Below are positions 1,470 through 63,449 of a stretch of 64,000 nucleotides of DNA, one piece after another. The translations under genes and the position numbers were made by a program. The stretch is from an uncultured delta proteobacterium (GTDB taxonomy: Bacteria; Desulfobacterota; RBG-13-43-22), in assembly GCA_963716045.1 (NCBI GenBank), contig CAVQSS010000025.1:772-64771 (forward strand), in the 5' to 3' direction. Position 1 is the first letter of the stretch, and every line of letters starts with the position of its first letter. Below the pieces are notes generated by a model that was given only the letters and a program-made list of their open reading frames with translations, did not search any database and was not told the origin of the DNA.

Positions 1470-1523
1470 AGGCTAAAGTCCGAAGAAGGCTACCGCCAGA
1501 CCTTTACACCGGCGTGATCAATA

Positions 1524-1663
1524 AATTCGAAATGCCGAAACACGACAATTCGAAACAGAGCACAAAGGTCCAAAATCCAAACTGTCCGAAACGAAAACGC
1601 TTTGAATTTTGAAATTTGGTCATTTGAATTTGTTTCGGATTTCGAATTTCGGATTTCGAGTTT
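1524..1663. repeat. Family-1 intergenic palindromic element (MITE/REP-like), copy A, degenerate left arm
   Basis: Right arm CATTTGAATTTGTTTCGGATTTCGAATTTCGGATTTCGAGTTT (1621-1663). A degenerate inverted left arm starts ~1526. Same arms recur at 47344-47513, 57182-57246 and 62342-62546. Confidence 0.85.
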
Positions 1664-2516: not shown

Positions 2517-3301
2517 ACGGAGACCGTCTTTGTTTCGCCGGGGTGGATATCGGTTCGGCCTTTATCAAAGCCGTTCTGGTGAGCCGACAAAAAATCCTGG
2601 CTTCCGCAATGCTCCCCTCCGGAGGCCGCTACCGGGAAACCGCCGGAGACGTTTTGGAGACGGCGCTGGCCCAAGCCGGTCTGAGCCGGGAACGGCTCGC
2701 CGGCATCGTGGTCACCGGCGTGGGGGCGGAAAGCGCCCCCTTCCCGGCGAGGTCGGTATCCGATATTTCCTGTCAGGCCCGGGGCTGCCGCTTCCATTTT
2801 CCTTCGGCCCGCACCGTGATCGATATCGGCGGGCAGTTCACCAAAGCCGCCAAATTGAACCCCGAGGGTCGGGTGGCCGATTTCCTGATCAGCGAAAAAT
2901 GCGCCGCGGGCTCCGGGCGTTTCTTGCAGATCATGGCTCGCATCCTGCAGATCGAATGGGAGACGATCGGCCCCCTTTCCCTGAAATCAAAAACACCGGT
3001 GGAGTTTTCCACCAACTGCGCCGTCTTTGCCGAATCGGAAACCGTCTCCCGGCTGGCCGAAGGCGCCCGCCCGGAAGACTTGCTGGCCGGCGTGCATCGT
3101 GCCATGGCCGCCAAGGTGGCCATGCTGGCCAAAAGGCTGAAGATGGAGCCGGAAGTGGTCCTTACCGGCGGCGGGGCGGAGGATGCCGGCCTGGTCCGGG
3201 CCGTCAGCGAGGCCCTGGGCCTGGAAGTGCGGGTCCCGGAAAATCCCCGGCTCACGGCCGCCCTCGGCGCCGCCTGCCTGGCCGAGGAGAACCAACCCTG
3301 A
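2513..3301 (+). CDS. Second BcrA/BcrD/HgdC-type activase ATPase
   Basis: 262 aa. Motifs GVDIGSAFIKAVLV, SEKCAAGSGRFL and STNCAVFAESE. The paired paralogous ATPases resemble the alpha/delta pair of class-I benzoyl-CoA reductases. Confidence 0.9.
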   Translation: MNGDRLCFAGVDIGSAFIKAVLVSRQKILASAMLPSGGRYRETAGDVLETALAQAGLSRERLAGIVVTGVGAESAPFPARSVSDISCQARGCRFHFPSARTVIDIGGQFTKAAKLNPEGRVADFLISEKCAAGSGRFLQIMARILQIEWETIGPLSLKSKTPVEFSTNCAVFAESETVSRLAEGARPEDLLAGVHRAMAAKVAMLAKRLKMEPEVVLTGGGAEDAGLVRAVSEALGLEVRVPENPRLTAALGAACLAEENQP

Positions 3302-10544: not shown

Positions 10545-10678
10545 GCGGCGGGAAGGAAGACACCGGCCCGGTCCGGTCCGTCAGCGAAGCCCTGGGCCTG
10601 GAAGTACGGGTCCCGGAAAATCCCCGGCTCACCGCCGCCCTCGGCGCCGCCTGCCTGGCGGAGGAAAATCAACCCTGA
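10545..10678 (+). pseudogene. Orphan 3'-terminal remnant of an activase ATPase gene (duplicate of 3170-3301)
   Basis: ~90% nucleotide identity by eye to the last ~125 nt of gene 2513-3301. It encodes ...VRSVSEALGLEVRVPENPRLTAALGAACLAEENQP*, identical in its last 30+ residues. There is no upstream gene body. Confidence 0.85.
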
Positions 10679-19450: not shown

Positions 19451-19515
19451 CTGTCATCTCAAGCGTTTCGTCAGCCTGTCATTCTGAGTGAAACGAAGAA
19501 TCTCGTCCTTCAAGG
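19451..19515. repeat. Family-2 repeat units (GTCAYYCTGAG core)
   Basis: CTGTCATCTCAAGCGTTTCGTCAGC followed by CTGTCATTCTGAGTGAAACGAAGAATCTCGTCCTTCAAGG. Related to the elements at 55131, 58469 and 60188. Confidence 0.7.
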
Positions 19516-46731: not shown

Positions 46732-47325
46732 TTATCTCCTCCTTAATTGATCCAGCGAATAGCGATAACGGGTCAAGGTATCAAAAGAATTCGCGGCCCT
46801 GGCTTTTTCCCGGATCCCCAGGTAGACCAGGGAAGCCATCTCCTCCGTCTCCCGATCCATGACCCGGTTGGGTTCCTCAAAAAGCAGGGCGCCGGATTTA
46901 CAGACCTCCACGCAGGCCGGCCTTTTTCCTTCACGCTGACGGGCGGCACACTGGTCGCACTTGTGGGCCGCTTCTTTATGGCTGGGATAGGTATGATACC
47001 GGATCACGCCAAAGGGGCAGGCCATGGCGCACATGCCGCAGTTGATGCAGCGGTCGGCATTGATCATCACGGCCCGGGCCTTATCCTCACGGAAGATGGC
47101 CTTGGTCAGGCAGGCCATCTCGCAGGGGGCCGGGTCGCAGTGCCGGCACTTGTTGGGAAAAGGCTCCTTTTGTTGGGACAGGCCGATGTGGATCCGGGGC
47201 TTGGACAGAACCGCCTCATAGGGCGCCGCGTAGAGGGACTGGCTCAGCGAGTGGGCCACCGCGCAGGCCACGCGGCACTGTAGGCAGCCGACGCAACGCT
47301 CGGGCCTGACTACCACCGTTTTCAT
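46732..47325 (-). CDS. cooF: CooF-like polyferredoxin (4x[4Fe-4S])
   Basis: ATG 47325 after AGGAGG. CVGCLQCRVAC, CRHCDPAPC, CINCGMCAMACP, CDQC...C. Confidence 0.85.
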   Translation of the reverse strand: MKTVVVRPERCVGCLQCRVACAVAHSLSQSLYAAPYEAVLSKPRIHIGLSQQKEPFPNKCRHCDPAPCEMACLTKAIFREDKARAVMINADRCINCGMCAMACPFGVIRYHTYPSHKEAAHKCDQCAARQREGKRPACVEVCKSGALLFEEPNRVMDRETEEMASLVYLGIREKARAANSFDTLTRYRYSLDQLRRR

Positions 47326-47343
47326 AGGGACCTCCTTTTGGGA

Positions 47344-47513
47344 TAAACTCGAAATACGAAACACGAAATCCGAAACAAATTCAAATGACCAAAATTCAAA
47401 TCACTGAAACGGCGTCCTTTCCTTGACCGGTGCTGGAATCCTTGCATGTTTCGATCATTTGGATTTTGAATATTGTTTTTTGTTTCGGATTTCGTGCTTC
47501 GAATTTCGGATTT
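47344..47513. repeat. Family-1 palindromic element, copy B (complete)
   Basis: Left arm CTCGAAATACGAAACACGAAATCCGAAACAAATTCAAATGA. Inverted right arm TCATTTGGATTTTGAATATTG...TGTTTCGGATTTCGTGCTTCGAATTTCGGATTT. Fills the cooF-flavoprotein spacer. Confidence 0.85.
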
Positions 47514-47525
47514 AACCCATGTTTT

Positions 47526-48749
47526 TTAGAATAGGTTCTTTAACAAATCATATAGGGAGGCTTCTCCGCTGACGATCGCTTCCGGCATGCCGGGAGATAA
47601 AGGTTTGCCGCGGCGGATCAGGTTCACCACCGGCCCGGCTCCCTCCGGGGCATTATAAAACATCATCCCGACGGGGATGTTGTCGCGCATGGCCAGCATC
47701 CGGAACTGATTTTTACCGGGAGTCTGCCGCTCGTGAAAGGTGACCCCTTCCGCGGTTTTCAAAAGCCCGGCGTTGATGAGATGGGAACGAGGCGTTTTCA
47801 GGCTGTTCAGGCCGATACTGCCCGGATAGGAAGCGGGGATACCGGCCAGGTTCAGACCCGCAAAGTATCCCTGTTCCACCGCCACCGGCCAAACAGCGTT
47901 GATCCAGGACCGCCCTCGGGTCACGTCCAGGGCCTGGCAGCAGTCCCCGGCGGTATAAATGTCCGCTTCCGAGGTTTCCAGAAATTCATTGGCCAGGATA
48001 CCGGCATCGACAGCCAAACCGGCGCTTCGGGCCAGCTCCAGCCGGGGGATGACCCCTTTGCCTACCACCAGGACATCGCTGCGGATCTCCTTCCCGGACG
48101 TTAACACGGCCAGAAGCTGTTGGTCCTCGGAGTTGATTTCGGAAATATCGTCACTTCGGTTCAGGACCACGCCCAGAGATTGGAGATCCTTTTCCACCCA
48201 GACCGCCGCCCGTTCGTTCATGACCATGGACAGCAGGTGCGGGGAGGAGACGACCATTTCCACCTCCAGTCCTCGGTCCTTCAACCCATAGGCCGTCTTG
48301 AGGCCCACAAAACCGCCGCCGGCTACGATTCCTTTCCCGGTGGCCAAGGTTTCGATCTTCAGGGCGTCTTCCAAAAAACGCAAGGTATGGGCCCGGTTTT
48401 CGGCCCGGCAGTATTCGGGCTGGACGGCGCCGGCGCCGACGGAGATCAGCAGTTTATCGTAGGAGAGGGTTTGACCGGAAGCACAGGCTATTGATTTATT
48501 TCGCGGGTCGATCTGCGAGACCCGCTCCCCGAGAAGCCAGGTCACGTTTTTCGGGTAGCGGTTGGTCTCCCGGATGGTCAGGAAATCCTGGTGGACTTCA
48601 CGGCCGAGGTACTGGGTAAGCAGGCAGCGGCAGTAGGGTTGCCGGTTTTCCTCGGAGATCGCCGTGATCTCGGCTTCCGGGGCAAACCGAAGAATTGTTT
48701 CCAAGGCCGAAAGGCCGGCGGCACTCAGACCAACGATCACTAACTTCAT
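47526..48749 (-). CDS. FAD/NAD(P)-dependent pyridine nucleotide-disulfide oxidoreductase (CODH-associated type)
   Basis: ATG 48749 after GAGGGAGG. MKLVIVGLSAAGLSA and GGGFVGLKTA dinucleotide motifs. Confidence 0.8.
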   Translation of the reverse strand: MKLVIVGLSAAGLSALETILRFAPEAEITAISEENRQPYCRCLLTQYLGREVHQDFLTIRETNRYPKNVTWLLGERVSQIDPRNKSIACASGQTLSYDKLLISVGAGAVQPEYCRAENRAHTLRFLEDALKIETLATGKGIVAGGGFVGLKTAYGLKDRGLEVEMVVSSPHLLSMVMNERAAVWVEKDLQSLGVVLNRSDDISEINSEDQQLLAVLTSGKEIRSDVLVVGKGVIPRLELARSAGLAVDAGILANEFLETSEADIYTAGDCCQALDVTRGRSWINAVWPVAVEQGYFAGLNLAGIPASYPGSIGLNSLKTPRSHLINAGLLKTAEGVTFHERQTPGKNQFRMLAMRDNIPVGMMFYNAPEGAGPVVNLIRRGKPLSPGMPEAIVSGEASLYDLLKNLF

Positions 48750-55130: not shown

Positions 55131-55379
55131 CTGTCACCTTGAGCCCTCGCCGGACTGTCACCCTGAACCCTTCGCCTGTCACCCTGAGCCCTTGGCCTGT
55201 CACCCTGAGCCCTTCGCCTGTCACCCTGAGCGAAGCGAAGGGTCTGGGTCTTTGGCTCAGGATAAACTCCGCGAAGGTCTCGTCTTCCGGTCCAGGGTAA
55301 ATTCCCCGAAGGATCTGGGGATCTGTTGAAAAAACGAGATTCTTCGTCCCGCGCTATCGCGGGACTCAGAATGACAAGC
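55131..55379. repeat. Family-2 composite repeat with five tandem ~21-nt units
   Basis: CTGTCACCYTGARCCCTTSGC x5 (55131-55238), then GAGCGAAGCGAAGGGTCT, GGCTCAGGATAAACTCCGCGAAGGTCTCGTCTTCC, and an inverted terminal arm ...GAGATTCTTCGTCCC...CTCAGAATGACAAG. Confidence 0.85.
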
Positions 55380-55447: not shown

Positions 55448-57031
55448 TCAAGGCCGCATCCCCCGTTTTTTCGGTCCCAACTGGCTGGGCAGCAGGCGGT
55501 AGGCATTTTCAACCCATTCGCAGAGAAGGGGCCGGGTATCGCGGGGGTCGATGATCTCCTCGATTCCAAACCGTTCGGCCGTCAGGAAGGGGGAGGTGAA
55601 TTTGGACAAACGCTGCTCGATCTCTTGGCGCAAGGCCTGGGGATCTTCGGAGGCTTCAATTTGGCGGCGGTAGGCGGCCTGCACGCCTCCTTCGATAGGG
55701 AGGGATCCCCATTCCCCGGAAGGCCAGGCGTAGCGCAGGTTCAGTCGGGAGTGGTTCCCGTGGGCCGCACCGGCCACGCCGTAGACCCGCCGCAGGATGA
55801 CGGAACACCAGGGGACCGTGGCCTGGTAGACGGCGAAGATGTAGCGGGCACCGAAGCGGATGGTACCCTGTTTCTCGGCCTCCACGCCGATCATAAAACC
55901 CGGGTTGTCGACAAAATTGACCACCGGCAAATGGAACGTGTCGCAGAGATCGATAAAGCGGGTCAGTTTGTCGGCCCCCTGGGCGGTAATGGCGCCGCCG
56001 AAAAAATTGGAATCGTGGGCGAAAACCCCCACCGGACGACCGGACAGCCGCGCCAGGCCGGTGACCACCGAGCGCCCATGTTGGGCCCCGATTTCAAAAA
56101 ATGACCCCTGATCCAGGACCAGTGAGAGGATACGGCGCACCGGATAAGGACGGCGTTTGTTTTTAGGAATGATGCGGACCAGTTCCTCCTCGCGGCGGTC
56201 GGCCGGGTCGGCAGTCTCTTTGACCGGGGGAAGTTCATAAACCGAATCGGGCAGGTAGGAGAGAAAACGGCGGATGTGATCAAAGGCTTCTTCCTCGGAG
56301 CCCACCTCATTGTCCACGGCGCCGAAACCACCGGTCTGAATTTGGGACCCGCCAAGTTCCTCCTTGCCCACCTTCCGATTCAGGGCCGGTTCCACCACCG
56401 GAGGACCGGCCACAAAGAGCTGGGCCGTTTTCCGGGGCATGACCGAGAAATGGGAAAAGACCACTCGGGCCGCACCCAGGCCGGCCACCGATCCGAGGGC
56501 GGCGCTCACCACCGGTACGGTGGAAAGCAGCGCGGCCATGGTGTCCATGCCCGGGTTGTAGGGCACATAGGTGCGATCCATCTGCTCCAGAAATTTGACG
56601 CTTCCGCCTCCTCCGGTACCGTCCACCAGCCGGACTATGGGCAAACGAAGCTCCAGGGCCATCCGTTCGGCATAGGCCGCCTTCTGCCCGATGGCGGCAT
56701 CGGCTGCCCCGCCGCGGATGGTGAAGTCGTCGGCCCCCACCACCACCCGACGCCGATCGATCCGGCCGGTCCCCAGGATAAAATTGGAAGGGAATAATTG
56801 AACCAGGCGGTCGTCGTCAAAGGTAGGGATCCCGGTGATGGCCCCGGTTTCGTGGAAGCTGCCCTTATCGAGCAAATGATCGATCCGCTCCCGGACGTTC
56901 AGACGGCCGGCCGCCCTATGGCGGGCCAGGTTTTCCTCTCCCCCCATCTGGGCCGCCAGGCTTTCCCGGAGGCGCAGTTCCTCTACCTCCGGCAACCAGC
57001 CCGGGTCCAGGTCGGTTTTTTCTTTATCCAT
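55448..57031 (-). CDS. Acyl-CoA carboxyltransferase (PccB/MmdA/GcdA family)
   Basis: ATG 57031. GRLNVRERIDHLLDKGSF, RLVDGTGGGGS, FFGGAITAQGADKLTRFIDLCDTFHLPVVNFVDNPGF. Confidence 0.85.
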   Translation of the reverse strand: MDKEKTDLDPGWLPEVEELRLRESLAAQMGGEENLARHRAAGRLNVRERIDHLLDKGSFHETGAITGIPTFDDDRLVQLFPSNFILGTGRIDRRRVVVGADDFTIRGGAADAAIGQKAAYAERMALELRLPIVRLVDGTGGGGSVKFLEQMDRTYVPYNPGMDTMAALLSTVPVVSAALGSVAGLGAARVVFSHFSVMPRKTAQLFVAGPPVVEPALNRKVGKEELGGSQIQTGGFGAVDNEVGSEEEAFDHIRRFLSYLPDSVYELPPVKETADPADRREEELVRIIPKNKRRPYPVRRILSLVLDQGSFFEIGAQHGRSVVTGLARLSGRPVGVFAHDSNFFGGAITAQGADKLTRFIDLCDTFHLPVVNFVDNPGFMIGVEAEKQGTIRFGARYIFAVYQATVPWCSVILRRVYGVAGAAHGNHSRLNLRYAWPSGEWGSLPIEGGVQAAYRRQIEASEDPQALRQEIEQRLSKFTSPFLTAERFGIEEIIDPRDTRPLLCEWVENAYRLLPSQLGPKKRGMRP

Positions 57032-57181
57032 ATTGAAATCCTTAAATTCGAAACAATCCCTCTTCTCTGAGCGTCCAGTTCGTGGTCCCAATTGAGACTA
57101 ACATCGGGCCTCACCAACCATCTATTAACCACTGGAGTCTGTTTTGCCCGCGCGCGAGATCAAAGGAGGGGTAGTTATTTT

Positions 57182-57246
57182 GATCATTTGGATTTTGGTG
57201 ATTTGAATTTGTTTCGGATTTTGGATTTCGAGTTTCGAATTTTGAA
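57182..57246. repeat. Family-1 element, copy C (single arm)
   Basis: GATCATTTGGATTTTGGTGATTTGAATTTGTTTCGGATTTTGGATTTCGAGTTTCGAATTTTG. No partner arm nearby. Confidence 0.8.
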
Positions 57247-57275: not shown

Positions 57276-58394
57276 TTACCGCCCCGTCTCCTGGTGATAA
57301 ACGCAATGCAATGTCTCCCCTTTCAGCAGGGCCTCGAAGCATTTGTTGCAGGAGATGCAGGTAGCCCGGTGTCGATCGCCCTGCTGCCAGTCCCGGATAA
57401 GTGCCGGTTCTTTGATCAGCGGGCGGCTGAGGGAGATCAGATCGGCTTCACCGTTCTGGATGACTTCCTCCATGAGCGCCGGCGTCCGCAATCCGCCGAC
57501 CATCATGACCGGGATCGTTACCTCCGGCTTTATTTCCCGGCACCAGGATCTGAAGTAGGCCTCGCGGTCCAGCCGGTTGACGCGGGTCTTGAATTCGGCA
57601 TTTTCGTATCCCGGACCCCTTAAACCGGAGCTGATCTCCAGGGCATCATAACCCCACTGAGCCAGGCGTTGGGCGGCTTGTTTCCCCTCACTAAATTCGA
57701 ATCCCCCAGGAAATCCGTCCTGGACCCCGATCTTTATCATTACCGGATATTCCTCCCCCACTTTCGACTGAATGGACCGGAAAATTTCATGATGGAGGCG
57801 AAGCCGGTTTTCGAGCGTACCTCCCCAGGCGTCGATCCGGCGGTTGGTGAAGGGAGATAGAAACTGGCTCAGCAGATAGGCGTGGGCCCCGTGGACCTGA
57901 ACCGCGTCCAGTCCGGCTTCTTTGGCCCGACCGGCGGCCTCGCCAAAGTCTCGAATCACTTGTTGGATTTCCGTCTCGGTGATCTCCCGATGAGGGTACT
58001 GGAAAAAAGTGTCATCCGGGACATAGGACGGGGCCAGGGCCTGCTTGCGGTGGGGGTTAAAGGCCTTGGCCGTTTCCCTGCCGGCATGAAACAACTGGAC
58101 GGCAATTTTAGTGCCGTGCTCATGGGCGGTCTCAGCCAGGTTCCGGAAACCGGGAATACAATCGTCGTCGGCCATTGAATTTTGAAAGACGGAAATCTGG
58201 CCGGAAGCGTGCACATAGGCAATACCCAAAATGATCAGGCCCACTCCGCCCTTGGCCAGTTCCTCCACCATCCGGATTTGTCCGGAGGAAACCCGGCCGT
58301 TTTTTTCGGCCATTCCATCATAGGTGGCGGACCGGACGAAGCGGTTCGGGAGGATCAGGTTTTTTATGGAATAAGGTTCAAAGAGAAGGTTCAT
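57276..58394 (-). CDS. Old-Yellow-Enzyme family NADH:flavin oxidoreductase with C-terminal Cys cluster
   Basis: ATG 58394. PNRFVRSATYDGMA, QLFHAGR, HGAHAYLLSQFLSP. C-terminal CISCNKC...C. Confidence 0.85.
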   Translation of the reverse strand: MNLLFEPYSIKNLILPNRFVRSATYDGMAEKNGRVSSGQIRMVEELAKGGVGLIILGIAYVHASGQISVFQNSMADDDCIPGFRNLAETAHEHGTKIAVQLFHAGRETAKAFNPHRKQALAPSYVPDDTFFQYPHREITETEIQQVIRDFGEAAGRAKEAGLDAVQVHGAHAYLLSQFLSPFTNRRIDAWGGTLENRLRLHHEIFRSIQSKVGEEYPVMIKIGVQDGFPGGFEFSEGKQAAQRLAQWGYDALEISSGLRGPGYENAEFKTRVNRLDREAYFRSWCREIKPEVTIPVMMVGGLRTPALMEEVIQNGEADLISLSRPLIKEPALIRDWQQGDRHRATCISCNKCFEALLKGETLHCVYHQETGR

Positions 58395-58468
58395 AGAGGC
58401 CTTTATTCTCGTACTAAACGCCCATGGTCGTCTGAGCCGCCTACGAAGCATGAAAATGGATATCCCAG

Positions 58469-58615
58469 CTTGTCATCCTGAGCCCTTCGCCTTCCTGTCA
58501 TCCTGAGTGAAACGAAGGATCTCGCTTCGGCTCAGGGTAAACTCAGCGAAGGATCTCGTCTTCCAAGCCTACGGTGGATAAGGGGATTCTTCAGTCGCTT
58601 CGCTCCTTCAGACAG
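58469..58615. repeat. Family-2 composite repeat
   Basis: CTTGTCATCCTGAGCCCTTCGCC, CTGTCATCCTGAGTGAAACGAAGGATCTCGCTTCGGCTCAGGGTAAACTCAGCGAAGGATCTCGTCTTCC, and a degenerate inverted arm ending at 58615. Confidence 0.8.
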
Positions 58616-60087: not shown

Positions 60088-60187
60088 GGCATTTTCCCTT
60101 TCCAGCTAAGCGTTACGAGATGTTTCTTGGATTTCGTACAAAACTCCCGGGCCCCCGGCACCCGCGAAGCCTGAAAATATCGCCATC

Positions 60188-60416
60188 GTGTCACCCTGAG
60201 ACCTGCGCCGGCTTGTCATTATGAGCCCTTCGCCTCCTGTCATCCTGAACGAAGTGAAGGATCTCGTCTTTCAGCTCAGGATAAACTCCGCGAAGGGTTC
60301 CGGTTTTTATCGCATGGCGAACTTCTGGGTTTCGTCATCCGTTGACCGGACAGGAAGCTGAACTTGTTGAAAGACGAGATCCTTCGTTCCCTTCGGTCTC
60401 TCAGGATGACAGGAAG
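60188..60416. repeat. Family-2 composite repeat (complete, inverted ends)
   Basis: GTGTCACCCTGAG..., TTGTCATTATGAGCCCTTCGCC, CTGTCATCCTGAACGAAGTGAAGGATCTCGTCTTTCAGCTCAGGATAAACTCCGCGAAGGG ... inverted GAAAGACGAGATCCTTCG...CTCAGGATGACAGGAAG. Confidence 0.85.
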
Positions 60417-60516: not shown

Positions 60517-62301
60517 CTAAAACCCCCCATCCGGCATTTCCACCACTTCCCGGCCGGCCCGCAGGCAGGTCTCCATCCGGGCCAGAGTCAAAGGCAGGGT
60601 TGTTCCGGTGAAGTAAGTGGCTTGAAGTACCTTGCCGGAGAGAAAATCATTGCCGCTCCCGGCTTCTATCCGTTCATGAGCGATGACCGCCAGATCCAGC
60701 AGCCGCCAGACCATAGTGATATCGCCGAAGCACAGCAGTGCCGGGTAGGTATAGGACGCCCACTGCAGGGGGTCCGATTTCATTTTTTCAGACAGGGTCC
60801 GGGCCATGGTTTCCAATCGGTCGACGGCCTCGGACAGGGCCCGGATTTCCGGCCCCAACCGGGGTTGATCGGCCTGTTTTCGGCAGAAGGTCTGAATCTC
60901 GGCCAGGTACGAATTAAAGAGTGCCCCGCCGTTCAGCCGCATTTTTCTTCCCAGCAGGTCGATGGACTGGATGCCGTTGGTGCCTTCATAGAGGGACATG
61001 ATCTTCGAATCGCGCAGGTATTGCTCCAGGGGGTATTCCCGGCAGAACCCGTACCCGCCCAGGCACTGGATGGCCGTTTCGCAGACCTTAAAACCCATGT
61101 CCGAACAATAGGCCTTGATGATCGGAGTCAGGAAATCGACCAGGGACTGGTAGTGGTTTTTCTCTTCTCCCGGGGGCAGCTCCAGGGCCAGTTCCGACCA
61201 GAAGGCCCCGGTATAAATCATGGAACGCATCCCGTCCACCGTGGCCTTCATCCAGAGCAGCATACGCCGAACATCGGGGTGATCGATGATCGGGACATAG
61301 CCGGGTTTCCGGCCGGCCTGGTCCGAGCCCTGGATCCGCTCTTTGGCATAGGCCAGGGCGTTGAGATAGGCGGTACCGGCCAGGGTCATGCCGCTGACCC
61401 CGGTATTGATGCGAGCGGCATTCATCATCTGGAACATATGGGCCAGGCCGCTGTTGGCTTCGCCGCACAGGTAGCCAATACAGCCGTCCTGGTCCCCGAA
61501 ATTCAGCAGACAAGTGGGGGAGGCGTGGAGTCCCAGTTTCTTTTCCACCCCGCCGCAGCGCACGTCGTTGGGTTCCCCCAGGCTGCCGTCCGGATTGATC
61601 CGGATCTTAGGCACTACGAAGAGGGATATGCCCTTGACGCCCTCGGGTGCCCCCTCGATGCGGGCCAATAACAGGTGGATGATATTTTCGGCCAGATCGT
61701 GATCGCCCCAGGAAATGAAGATCTTGGAACCCTTGATCCGGTAGTGGTCTCCTTCCGGGTCGGCGCTGGTCCGGATGGCGGCCAGGTTGGAACCGGCCTG
61801 GGGCTCGGTGAGGGCCATAGTCCCGGCCCATTGCCCGCTGAACATGTTGGGGATGAAACGTTCCTTGAGTTCACGGGTCCCGAAGCTTTCGATCAGATGG
61901 GCCGCCCCGTGGGTCAGGCTGGGGGCCATGTTAAAGGCTTGGCAGGCCCCGTACATCAGGTCATTGATGACGATGCGCATCATATGGGGGAAACCCTGGC
62001 CGCCGTATTCCGGGTCCCGGGCCGCGGAGGTCCAGCCGTTTTCGCCGTAAAGCCGAAAGGCCGCTTGGAACTCGGGGGCGCAGCGGACCTCGCCGTTATC
62101 CAGGACCACCCCCCATTTTTCCCCGATCTCCTGGAGGGGAGCGATCTCCGTCCGGGCAAATTTCATGGCCTCTTTGACCAGCAGGTCCAGGGTTTCCTCG
62201 TCGAGTTCCCGGTAGCGGTCCAGCTTACAAAGGCTTCCGTAATTCAATTGATTTTTTAAAATAAAAAATAGGTCGTCTTCGTTTACTTTAAAATGAGACA
62301 T
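60517..62301 (-). CDS. Acyl-CoA dehydrogenase (long form, 594 aa)
   Basis: GGQGFP, GTMALTEPQAGSNLAAIRTSA, KIFISWGDHD. C-terminal extension domain. Confidence 0.85.
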   Translation of the reverse strand: MSHFKVNEDDLFFILKNQLNYGSLCKLDRYRELDEETLDLLVKEAMKFARTEIAPLQEIGEKWGVVLDNGEVRCAPEFQAAFRLYGENGWTSAARDPEYGGQGFPHMMRIVINDLMYGACQAFNMAPSLTHGAAHLIESFGTRELKERFIPNMFSGQWAGTMALTEPQAGSNLAAIRTSADPEGDHYRIKGSKIFISWGDHDLAENIIHLLLARIEGAPEGVKGISLFVVPKIRINPDGSLGEPNDVRCGGVEKKLGLHASPTCLLNFGDQDGCIGYLCGEANSGLAHMFQMMNAARINTGVSGMTLAGTAYLNALAYAKERIQGSDQAGRKPGYVPIIDHPDVRRMLLWMKATVDGMRSMIYTGAFWSELALELPPGEEKNHYQSLVDFLTPIIKAYCSDMGFKVCETAIQCLGGYGFCREYPLEQYLRDSKIMSLYEGTNGIQSIDLLGRKMRLNGGALFNSYLAEIQTFCRKQADQPRLGPEIRALSEAVDRLETMARTLSEKMKSDPLQWASYTYPALLCFGDITMVWRLLDLAVIAHERIEAGSGNDFLSGKVLQATYFTGTTLPLTLARMETCLRAGREVVEMPDGGF

Positions 62302-62341
62302 GGATAACGTCCTTGATAAAATGATTTATTCGGTTAACCAT

Positions 62342-62546
62342 CAAAATCCGAAACTCGAAATCCGAAATCCGAAACAAATTCAAATGATCTAAATTCGAAA
62401 TTCAAAACGTACCGCCCCTAAATCAACAAGGTCAGTCCAATAGAAAAACTCTACTGTGTGTTTCCTTCAACCCTTGGGGGGAATCCTTTTTCGGTCATTT
62501 GAATTTTGACTATTTGAATTTGTTTCGGATTTCGGATTTCGAATTT
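62342..62546. repeat. Family-1 palindromic element, copy D (best preserved, MITE-like)
   Basis: About 31-nt perfect terminal inverted repeat TCGAAATCCGAAATCCGAAACAAATTCAAAT / ATTTGAATTTGTTTCGGATTTCGGATTTCGA flanking a ~85-nt unique core. Confidence 0.9.
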
Positions 62547-62551
62547 AGCTT

Positions 62552-63301
62552 CTAAAACCCCAGGTAGGTTTTGCGGAGGACCTCGTCTTCGAGGAGTTGG
62601 ACCCCGGAACCCTCGGCGATGATCTTGCCCGAGGAGAGTACGTAGTTGCGGACGGCCATCTGGAAGACGGTGCTGACCTCCTGCTCGACCAGCAAAACGG
62701 TAATCCCCAGGCGGTTGATTTCGGTGATTTTGTCAAAGACCTCCTTGCGCATCAACGGCGCCAGGCCGGTAGAGGGTTCGTCGATGCACAGCAGCTTGGG
62801 TTCGGACATGAGCGCCCGGCCGATGGCCAGCATCTGCTGTTCCCCTCCGGAGAGGGTCCCGGAAATCTGGCCGGAGCGGGTCTTCAGGACCGGGAACATG
62901 GTGTAAATCTTCTCCAAATCTTCCTGGGTTTTCTTCTTATCCTTCTGCAGATAGGCCCCGGCCAGCAGGTTGTCCAGGACGCTCATTTCCCGGAATGGTC
63001 TTCGCCGTTCCGGACACAGCACGAGTCCTCGGCGGACGATTTCATGGGCCGGTACCTGATCGATCCGTTCCCCGTTGAAGGTCACCGAACCTTCCAGAAA
63101 GATGTCCCCGGCCGTGGAGCGGCGCTTGAGTTCTCTTTCCCAAGCCACCAGCCCGGTGATGGCCCGCAGGGTGGTGGATTTGCCGGCCCCGTTGGGACCC
63201 ACCAGGCTGACCAGTTCCCCCGTGTCTACGGACAGGTTCAGGTCATTGATGAGCACGGCCTTTTCATAGCGCACACTCAGATGTTCAACTTCCAGCAGCA
63301 T
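62552..63301 (-). CDS. livF: Branched-chain amino acid ABC transporter ATP-binding protein (LivF type)
   Basis: MLLEVEHLSVRYEK start (alternative start at 63343). Walker A GPNGAGKST, signature LSGGEQQML, Walker B LLCIDEPS. Ends KTYLGF*. Confidence 0.85.
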   Translation of the reverse strand: MLLEVEHLSVRYEKAVLINDLNLSVDTGELVSLVGPNGAGKSTTLRAITGLVAWERELKRRSTAGDIFLEGSVTFNGERIDQVPAHEIVRRGLVLCPERRRPFREMSVLDNLLAGAYLQKDKKKTQEDLEKIYTMFPVLKTRSGQISGTLSGGEQQMLAIGRALMSEPKLLCIDEPSTGLAPLMRKEVFDKITEINRLGITVLLVEQEVSTVFQMAVRNYVLSSGKIIAEGSGVQLLEDEVLRKTYLGF

Positions 63302-63363
63302 GTCTTTTCCCAGTATCCCTTCCAGATTCTTAAACCATGGCATTCAAAAGAGTTATTATTCTA

Positions 63364-63436
63364 CTGGAGTACTGGAGTGATGGAGTACTGATCTTAGAAA
63401 CAATGCTCCATTACTCCAGTACTCCATCACTCCAAG
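63364..63436. repeat. Inverted repeat built from TGGAGTRM octamers (18-bp perfect stem)
   Basis: TGGAGTGATGGAGTACTG (63373-63390) is the exact reverse complement of 63417-63434. Extra octamer copies flank both arms. Lies between livG and livF. Confidence 0.8.
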
Positions 63437-63449
63437 ACACCAAACAAGA

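Follow-up and report, generated by a model that had tools for sequence, protein, structure and literature searches.

Probable descent of a dispersed, heptamer-armed palindrome of an uncultured delta proteobacterium from a 23S rRNA intervening sequence-type hairpin cassette

A stretch of 64,000 nucleotides from an uncultured delta proteobacterium (the window; C25:772-64771 of a 31-contig assembly of 3.86 Mb and 55% G+C) carries four copies, A to D, of a dispersed palindromic element named family 1. The locus of copy D (62341-62556) raises the question of what such an element is, where it came from and what it does to the transcripts around it. The original prediction had labeled it MITE/REP-like, that is, akin to MITEs (miniature inverted-repeat transposable elements) or repetitive extragenic palindromic (REP) sequences. 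Based on all comparisons, it was concluded that family 1 is very probably a gene-less, amplified derivative of a hairpin cassette around an S23p (PF05635) gene, of the kind known as intervening sequences (IVSs). The best explanation as a whole, in which amplified gene-less cassettes of the IVS type are co-transcribed with their neighbors, cut by RNase III and spread without a transposase, was judged to be reasonably probable.

The gene found between the arms of some copies carried this conclusion. The full-length form of the element was about 470-520 nt long and consisted of two mirror-image arms around a four-helix-bundle gene. Hereafter G000 denotes the own genome of the window, G001 and G002 its congeners, other G numbers further relatives, and L numbers contigs of metagenomes or metagenome-assembled genomes (MAGs). 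In four unrelated MAG contigs (L083, L102, L103 and L124), elements of 467-612 nt held between their arms an open reading frame (ORF) matching PF05635 ('23S rRNA-intervening sequence protein') and TIGR02436 ('four helix bundle protein'). The closest solved structure of this cargo protein was 2RLD. One of the nine PF05635 matches of G000 itself was a truncated gene (C13:55573-55767) lying between family-1 arms (element C13:55557-55800).

In a further comparison of PF05635 homologues, which covered 20 genomes of the taxonomic family, tight bracketing by family-1 arms was found for six of the seven close homologues (at least 59% identity) in the related genomes, the exception being in G020, and for none of the 20 distant paralogues. 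The bracketed genes shared one orthologous site, 3' of a gene ending in ...VDGGWTAW*; G001 and G007 have them intact, and those of G000, G002, G003 and G005 have decayed. A protein-first test was also made, in which metagenome contigs were searched with an alignment of seven cargo proteins. In the best 80 of more than 586 stretches, arms were present on both sides of the gene in 45, on at least one side in 72 and on neither side in 8. Intact cognate ORFs of 120 aa were present, for example, in L163 and L164. In 31 of 39 cases of the metagenome set, the gene had the direction of a long ORF upstream of it whose stop codon was no more than 100 nt away, and in 21 of 39 this stop lay from -9 to +6 nt from the terminus (median 5 nt). 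The ATG of the cargo gene was located in the inner part of the left arm, CAAATGACC. The gene-less copies keep CAAATGACCAAAATTCAAAAC, which is the ATG with about the first six codons, and have lost the body of the gene. The label MITE/REP was abandoned, since the family was found without a target-site duplication, a DDE partner or a nearby REP-associated tyrosine transposase (RAYT), and its full-length form encodes a PF05635 protein instead.

The gene-less form was by far the more numerous one. A hidden Markov model (HMM) of the arm, applied genome-wide at a threshold of E<0.01, detected 148 arms at 102 loci of the 3.86-Mb genome, and the dispersed palindromic family proposed at first was thus borne out. 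Both arms were found at 46 loci and a single arm at 56, the two-armed tally being too low because the HMM misses a more diverged arm type such as that in copy A. The gene-less copies were 79-427 nt long, the commonest form was a hairpin of 143 nt, and its consensus matched other copies at E values down to 1e-64. Longer gene-less copies (175-427 nt) had unrelated cores, some of which were other repeat families. The arms, about 45-65 nt each, were made of NNNCGAA heptamer units that differed in number among the copies, and the termini AAAT.CGAA ... TTCG.ATTT were conserved. That the arms are built from heptamers had already been proposed, and the autocorrelation of the arm consensus agreed with it (0.53 at lag 7 vs 0.16-0.44 at lags 1-6).

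The placement of the loci was counted with neighbors taken from our own rough gene calls. The 93 intergenic loci lay between 78 co-directional, 12 convergent and 3 divergent gene pairs. Divergent spacers were depleted, as about 11.5 were expected by the number of gaps (binomial p = 0.002; 5e-7 by length). The 7 'genic' loci were ORF ends that ran into an arm, and no locus interrupted a gene. The spacers were nearly filled, the median gap being 19 nt on the side of the upstream stop and 26 nt on the side of the downstream start. It had been stated that a lack of preference for spacers and for orientation would speak against a role of the element. A preference for spacers located 3' of a gene was found genome-wide, whereas an overall orientation preference was absent, the better arm being at the upstream stop in 20 cases and at the downstream start in 19. 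The same balance removed the particular arm before the downstream start as a special feature; an arm precedes the start codon because the two arms mirror each other. Within the size classes, the better arm of 133-150-nt copies was at the upstream stop in a ratio of 14:4 (14:5 with copy A; hand tally with an uncorrected binomial estimate of p≈0.03). The ratio was 17:11 (p = 0.34) in an automated class of up to 170 nt, and 8:3 in the opposite direction, not significant, in the class of long copies.

The four copies of the window were all real and lay where they had first been seen. Each was flanked by a same-strand gene pair, and the Pfam matches agreed with the gene names proposed for it. Copy A (1522-1663, plus strand) was a compact, two-armed element of the 143-nt type without a gene, 89% identical to positions 1-138 of the 143-nt consensus, between a HGD-D-type dehydratase gene (855-1469) and a BcrAD-type ATPase gene (1686-2516). 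Copy B (47342-47516, minus strand) was 175 nt long, two-armed and gene-less with an unrelated core. Its arms of 72 nt were 78% complementary, and it lay between a Pyr_redox_2 gene (47526-48749, minus strand) and a 4Fe-4S gene (46732-47325, minus strand). A single surviving arm represented copy C (57178-57245, no strand assigned), found between an Oxidored_FMN gene (57276-58451, minus strand) and a carboxyltransferase gene (55448-57031, minus strand). The orthologous site of G001 carried a complete two-armed element of 138 nt, so copy C was regarded as a decayed copy.

Copy D (minus strand) was 216 nt long, two-armed and gene-less, and separated an ABC ATPase gene (62552-63343, minus strand) from an acyl-CoA dehydrogenase gene (60517-62301, minus strand). 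Its arms of 49 nt (62351-62399 and 62498-62546) were 90% complementary. The perfect 31-nt terminal inverted repeat (TIR) described before, TCGAAATCCGAAATCCGAAACAAATTCAAAT, was found within them, at 62358-62388 and, as the reverse complement, at 62512-62542. The core had been put at about 85 nt and was measured as about 100-120 nt instead, namely about 123 nt if the arms are taken as 31 nt and 98 nt if they are taken as 49 nt. The distance from arm to downstream start was about 20 nt in copies A and B, as proposed, and about 40 nt in copy D, for which about 60 nt had been given. Additionally, a second heptamer hairpin was noticed at 63365-63442, in the spacer that precedes the livF-like gene, where CTGGAGTACTGGAGTGATGGAGTACTG stood opposite CAATGCTCCATTACTCCAGTACTCCATCACTCCA in arms of 26 nt that were 88% complementary and spaced by 10-26 nt. 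Its appearance is that of an array from a different arm family, again without a gene.

Among the closest known systems was the IVS of 23S rRNA. In helix 45 of the Coxiella burnetii 23S rRNA, the IVS combines a TIR stem of 28 bp with an S23p ORF and GACAGAT heptamers in tandem, and it is at the first of these heptamers that RNase III cleaves (PMC4990558). The IVSs of Leptospira and C. burnetii share with the family-1 cassette the TIR stem, the adjacent tandem heptamers, the PF05635 gene in the loop, the frequent decay of that gene and the absence of a transposase. Stem and heptamers around an S23p ORF were present in the full-length form of family 1, and the window copies had the stem and heptamers without the ORF. 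Unlike the 23S IVSs, family 1 occupies mRNA spacers after protein genes, nearly all its copies are gene-less, and about 100 loci are found per genome. Insertion into helix 25 or 45 of 23S rRNA was not found, as all the copies lay between protein genes. No Rfam family was matched in the window or in 10 copy-bearing loci, and no rRNA was present there. The heptamer also differed, NNNCGAA in family 1 vs GACAGAT in the Coxiella IVS. The published excision enzyme of the 23S IVSs is RNase III, whereas for family 1 cutting is proposed by analogy.

Inverted arms of 7-nt periodicity, made of different heptamers, were also found around the other PF05635 genes of G000. Five further genes or pseudogenes of this family (C6:128288, C6:87915, C25:110320, C20:31403 and C7:254033) lay between such arms, with the heptamers GGCGTGA/GAGCGCA, GGGGTAG, TGCTGGT/TACTGGT, AATTAAG and GATGACA. 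The last of these is the GACAGAT repeat of the Coxiella IVS read in another register. Each of the other arm types was present at 3-15 loci vs about 96 for family 1. PF05635 genes have also been reported wedged among cas genes (PMC3936711). In the literature searched, no publication was found that links the PF05635 family to heptamer arms outside rRNA, and a sequence-string search found none that prints the family-1 arm sequence. What the locus adds is that the arms of one cassette are amplified to about 100 gene-less loci, and that one arm type travels with one protein subfamily across phyla.

As RNA, the 143-nt consensus was computed to fold at -58.6 kcal/mol (z = -10.2), and copies presumed to be co-transcribed formed predicted stems of 40-65 bp (z −8 to −10). 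For copy D, the minimum free energy was -84 kcal/mol (z = -8.1), with 37 uninterrupted pairs in the computed stem. No promoter or terminator consensus was found on the gene strand within copies A or D. We infer that the copies are co-transcribed with their flanking genes, because these form tight same-strand pairs and promoter and terminator consensus sequences are absent on the gene strand. The gene for RNase III (rnc) was present in the genome. In the proposed sequence of events, the element would be transcribed together with the flanking operon genes, and the transcript would form the long, nearly perfect duplex of the computed fold, which host RNase III would cleave. The polycistronic RNA would then be split between two cistrons, with half-stems left on the new ends. 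The chances that the stems are RNase III substrates, like those of the 23S IVSs, were considered about even. A role at the RNA level as a processing site is plausible, given the length and perfect pairing of the stems and the cleavage of the related 23S IVSs by RNase III (PMC4990558).

The 143-nt consensus matched in all three congeners, in three further genera of the family and in some other families of the phylum. When a 22-nt arm pattern was scanned against species-representative genomes, at least 120 contigs matched, and the 80 matches listed came from MAGs of at least 10 phylum-level groups, as labeled by their record titles. These included about 30 Desulfobacterota or 'delta', 24 Planctomycetota, 6 Acidobacteriota (Aminicenantes), 5 Patescibacteria, 3 Verrucomicrobiota, 3 Pseudomonadota, 2 Omnitrophota, 2 Nitrospirota, 2 Binatia and 1 Clostridia. 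Some arm-bearing contigs were 0.7-2.6 Mb long, and 93 two-armed copies were present in the cross-phylum loci. So close a similarity of a non-coding sequence across phyla points to horizontal spread. Phage was considered as the vector and rejected, the arm pattern being found on only 12 viral contigs.

The histories of single sites varied. The D site was filled in G000, G002 and G007 and held unrelated sequence in G001; in another genus the arms were kept there around an unalignable core. The sole near-clean empty site found was that of C25:79445, filled in G000 and G002 and empty in G001. Strain-level alleles were also looked for through contigs encoding two of the window proteins, and no record was found for either protein. 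When C25:79445-79512 was compared with G001 C10:113647-113650, the flanking genes were seen to abut in G001, with 3 nt between the aligned blocks. The inserts of 160-200 nt in G000 and G002 supply a new stop for the upstream gene, and the insert has therefore replaced the C-terminus of the upstream protein.

Several observations weigh against the explanation by an amplified, mobile and RNase III-cut cassette. The gene-bearing copy stood at one orthologous site across three genera and was decayed in 4 of 6 genomes. Arms were numerous in G009, in which no cognate gene was found, whereas G020 had the gene without arms; several genomes with many arms had a decayed gene or none. Movement was not seen directly. 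On two syntenic contigs of the congeners, each of the 8 elements stood at a site occupied here too, and many insertions therefore predate the genus. In 390 kb of syntenic contigs from two congeners, no clean empty site giving exact boundaries was found; with 72% identity at four-fold sites, the spacers have diverged too far for clean junctions. Orthologous arms were 79% identical vs 72% for four-fold degenerate sites and 77% to non-orthologous arms, so that any constraint or homogenization of the arms is probably weak or modest. Finally, the pairable fraction was 0.854 for arms of the same element vs 0.870 for arms of different elements, and 0.812 vs 0.826 in other phyla. As arms of one element pair no better than mixed arms, there is no covariation evidence for a selected RNA structure, and arm complementarity comes from both arms matching the family consensus.

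The alternative that survived best was that family 1 is an intercistronic RNA element selected by the host as a stabilizer, insulator or processing site, its link to the cassette being historical only. Some of the data agree with it. The placement was strongly biased to transcribed spacers after genes, and sites were occupied across genera with conserved arms and diverged cores. The arm of site B next to the ribosome-binding site was kept in three genomes, the distal arm remaining in G000 only, so that in G001 and G002 the sole surviving arm adjoins the downstream ribosome-binding site. Heptamer arrays of Xanthomonas and Nostoc (GGGAATC / GGGGAYT) have the same placement and are transcribed, often as convergent pairs; they are enriched between aligned ORFs, at up to 50 bp from stops, rare between divergent ORFs, and have no linked gene family (PMC4692102). 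However, selection by the host is difficult to reconcile with the missing orientation preference, the lack of compensatory changes and the arm identities given above, by which orthologous arms exceed four-fold sites only slightly and resemble each other no more than they resemble paralogues. One-armed remnants were also common (56 of 102 loci), and site occupancy differed between congeners. This alternative was therefore considered unlikely.

A classical MITE, i.e. a deletion derivative of an insertion sequence (IS) with a DDE transposase, for example of the IS630 or IS5 family, moved in trans, would have several of the features observed. Family 1 has long TIRs (arms of 45-65 nt), a small size (elements of 79-427 nt), many copies, AT-rich termini (TTAAAT...ATTTAA in many of them) and no transposase of its own, and it is found nested with other repeats. 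Correia elements of Neisseria, ERIC, RUP and BOX likewise are palindromic, intergenic, multi-copy elements of 100-200 nt. Correia and similar MITE-like repeats are co-transcribed with neighboring genes, and Correia hairpins are cleaved by RNase III. Correia elements make a TA duplication and are restricted to one genus, whereas family 1 is found in many phyla, shows no duplication, and has heptamer arms and, when full-length, a four-helix-bundle gene. No direct repeat abutted the termini in 36 well-bounded gene-bearing cassettes or in 46 own two-armed copies, the flanking bases showing mild A-richness only. The absence of a transposase from the window, noted at first, extended to the family, as none was associated with the element and no transposase ORF was seen inside any element examined. 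A search for an autonomous partner with the same TIR had been suggested as well. All ORFs of at least 90 aa from the 120 cross-phylum loci were clustered, and no recurrent transposase appeared; the recurrent clusters were repeat read-through, generic ABC transporters and the four-helix-bundle gene only. The latter being the sole recurrent cargo between the arms, an origin as a classical MITE is improbable.

It was also considered that the arms could be arrays of DNA-level protein-binding sites, or heptamer microsatellites made by slippage (non-B DNA), with no mobile history. The arms are indeed 7-nt periodic with a unit number that varies between copies, and heptanucleotide families of Geobacter metallireducens have been proposed as sites of global regulators (PMC2700814). 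The arrays of Xanthomonas, Nostoc and Geobacter consist of 7-nt tandem units like those of family 1, and those of the first two share its placement and inverted pairing. No gene family is named in the papers on these arrays, which propose that they are G-quadruplexes or regulator sites. Family 1, in contrast, is A/T-rich, and a start codon lies in the inner part of its arms, which is conserved and not repetitive. Slippage fails to explain why the mirror-image arms have such an inner part (CAAATGACCAAAATTCAAAAC), why they are linked to a single protein subfamily and why they are nearly identical in at least 10 phyla; an independent origin would predict phylum-specific arms, which were not observed. 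Hence this alternative was regarded as very improbable. The cyanobacterial STRR are another heptamer repeat array.

The least probable alternative was a REP element or bacterial interspersed mosaic element (BIME) kept by a RAYT (Y1 transposase), or hairpins kept, like NTS/SRM, by the GIY-YIG nuclease Ssn: the copies are indeed extragenic, palindromic, placed after stop codons in operons and combined in mosaics with other hairpin modules, and the genome has 10 Y1_Tnp matches, but none of these lies within 6 kb of a family-1 arm, no RAYT or Ssn gene was seen between family-1 arms, the NNNCGAA heptamers make up arms of 45-65 nt and not palindromes of 20-40 nt with a GTAG/CGTC tag, and the published SRM/NTS consensus, CGTCAT-tagged and of the HGTCWY... 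type, is unrelated to them. REP/BIME with RAYT and NTS/SRM with Ssn (PMC11893778) do resemble family 1 as a small gene bracketed by its own hairpins, with many orphan repeats and extragenic mosaics. In family 1 the partner is a four-helix bundle, non-enzymatic as far as is known, and not a Y1 or GIY-YIG nuclease, and the repeats are much longer and periodic. A hairpin of the SRM type was seen in one copy only (G000 C13:17357-17734), as an insert of its own within the 378-nt core; there, CGTCATTCCCGCAGCG...GGGCGGGAATCC represents an NTS/SRM-like hairpin of the kind linked to the Ssn nuclease (PMC11893778).

In the explanation by an amplified IVS-type cassette, the family would have spread by self-copying and horizontal transfer, without a DDE or HUH transposase and without target duplication. 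The four-helix-bundle protein, which has no known activity, is the only candidate for the specificity factor of such spread, and a role for it is suggested tentatively. We also put forward, as a possibility somewhat short of an even chance, that the S23p gene and its cognate heptamer arms form a mobile element that propagates itself by a mechanism of a new class. In such an element, which would use neither a DDE or HUH enzyme nor target duplication, the protein would recognize its own arms. The element would cross phyla, insert behind stop codons and give rise to gene-less bursts as IS/MITE pairs do.

If true, the self-propagating element would explain the origin of the 23S rRNA IVSs and of the abundant heptamer arrays of bacteria. 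The locus joins three old puzzles that had been treated apart, namely the rRNA IVSs and the S23p gene they carry, what the very large PF05635/TIGR02436 family does, and the heptamer arrays abundant in the spacers of many bacteria. Here one arm family is tied to one protein subfamily, and the pair travels jointly through at least 10 phyla. The arms with their 120-codon gene offer a concrete, testable system for the movement of cassettes and the splitting of operon transcripts by RNase III. For annotation, family 1 accounts for spurious ORFs such as '...KSEIRNPKSETN...' and for the long AT-rich spacers of these MAGs.

Several other repeats were found beside family 1. The 'family 2' repeats of the window (55150-55325, 58465-58565, 60183-60406 and 19452-19505), also present at G000 C7:237935-238361, have units TGTCA(T/C)CCTGAGC... 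and ...GAAGGATCTCG with tandem steps of 21 nt and about 36 nt, and one block of them is nested within the core of a family-1 copy on C7. A near-perfect palindrome of 56 nt, GATTCTTACATCCATTGTTAGAGACAAATTCTCAGAACAATGGATGTAAGAATC, occurred at G000 C12:94301, C15:37846, C18:40928, C27:18246 and at least 8 further loci. Half-copies of this palindrome, GTTAGAGATAAATTCTCAGA..., adjoined many of the compact family-1 copies at the end facing the downstream gene, which results in BIME-like mosaics. A small hairpin, CTAACCAAAAATATTTGAATTTTTGGTTAG, was found directly 3' of stop codons (G000 C4:35488-35520, C26:210684-210712, C16:64560-64594 and others), often with a family-1 arm on its far side, and also at places without family 1.

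A mini-hairpin of 24 nt, GACTCGACTGAGCTCGTCGCAGGC, was inserted at a constant position within the arms (CGAAATC|...|CGAAAC). It was recorded at G000 C1:48025-48215, symmetrically in both arms, and at C5:167769, C14:9008, C13:81245, C11:10834 and C13:17357, as well as in the D-site copies of G002 and G007 and in L138. Other GC-rich mini-hairpins were found at comparable places in the Planctomycetota copies L039 and L064 and in L114. Such arm-inserted mini-hairpins resemble the very small dispersed repeats of cyanobacteria. Additionally, the window contained a direct repeat of 134 nt with 90% identity, at 3168-3301 and 10545-10678, its two copies being 7.4 kb apart.

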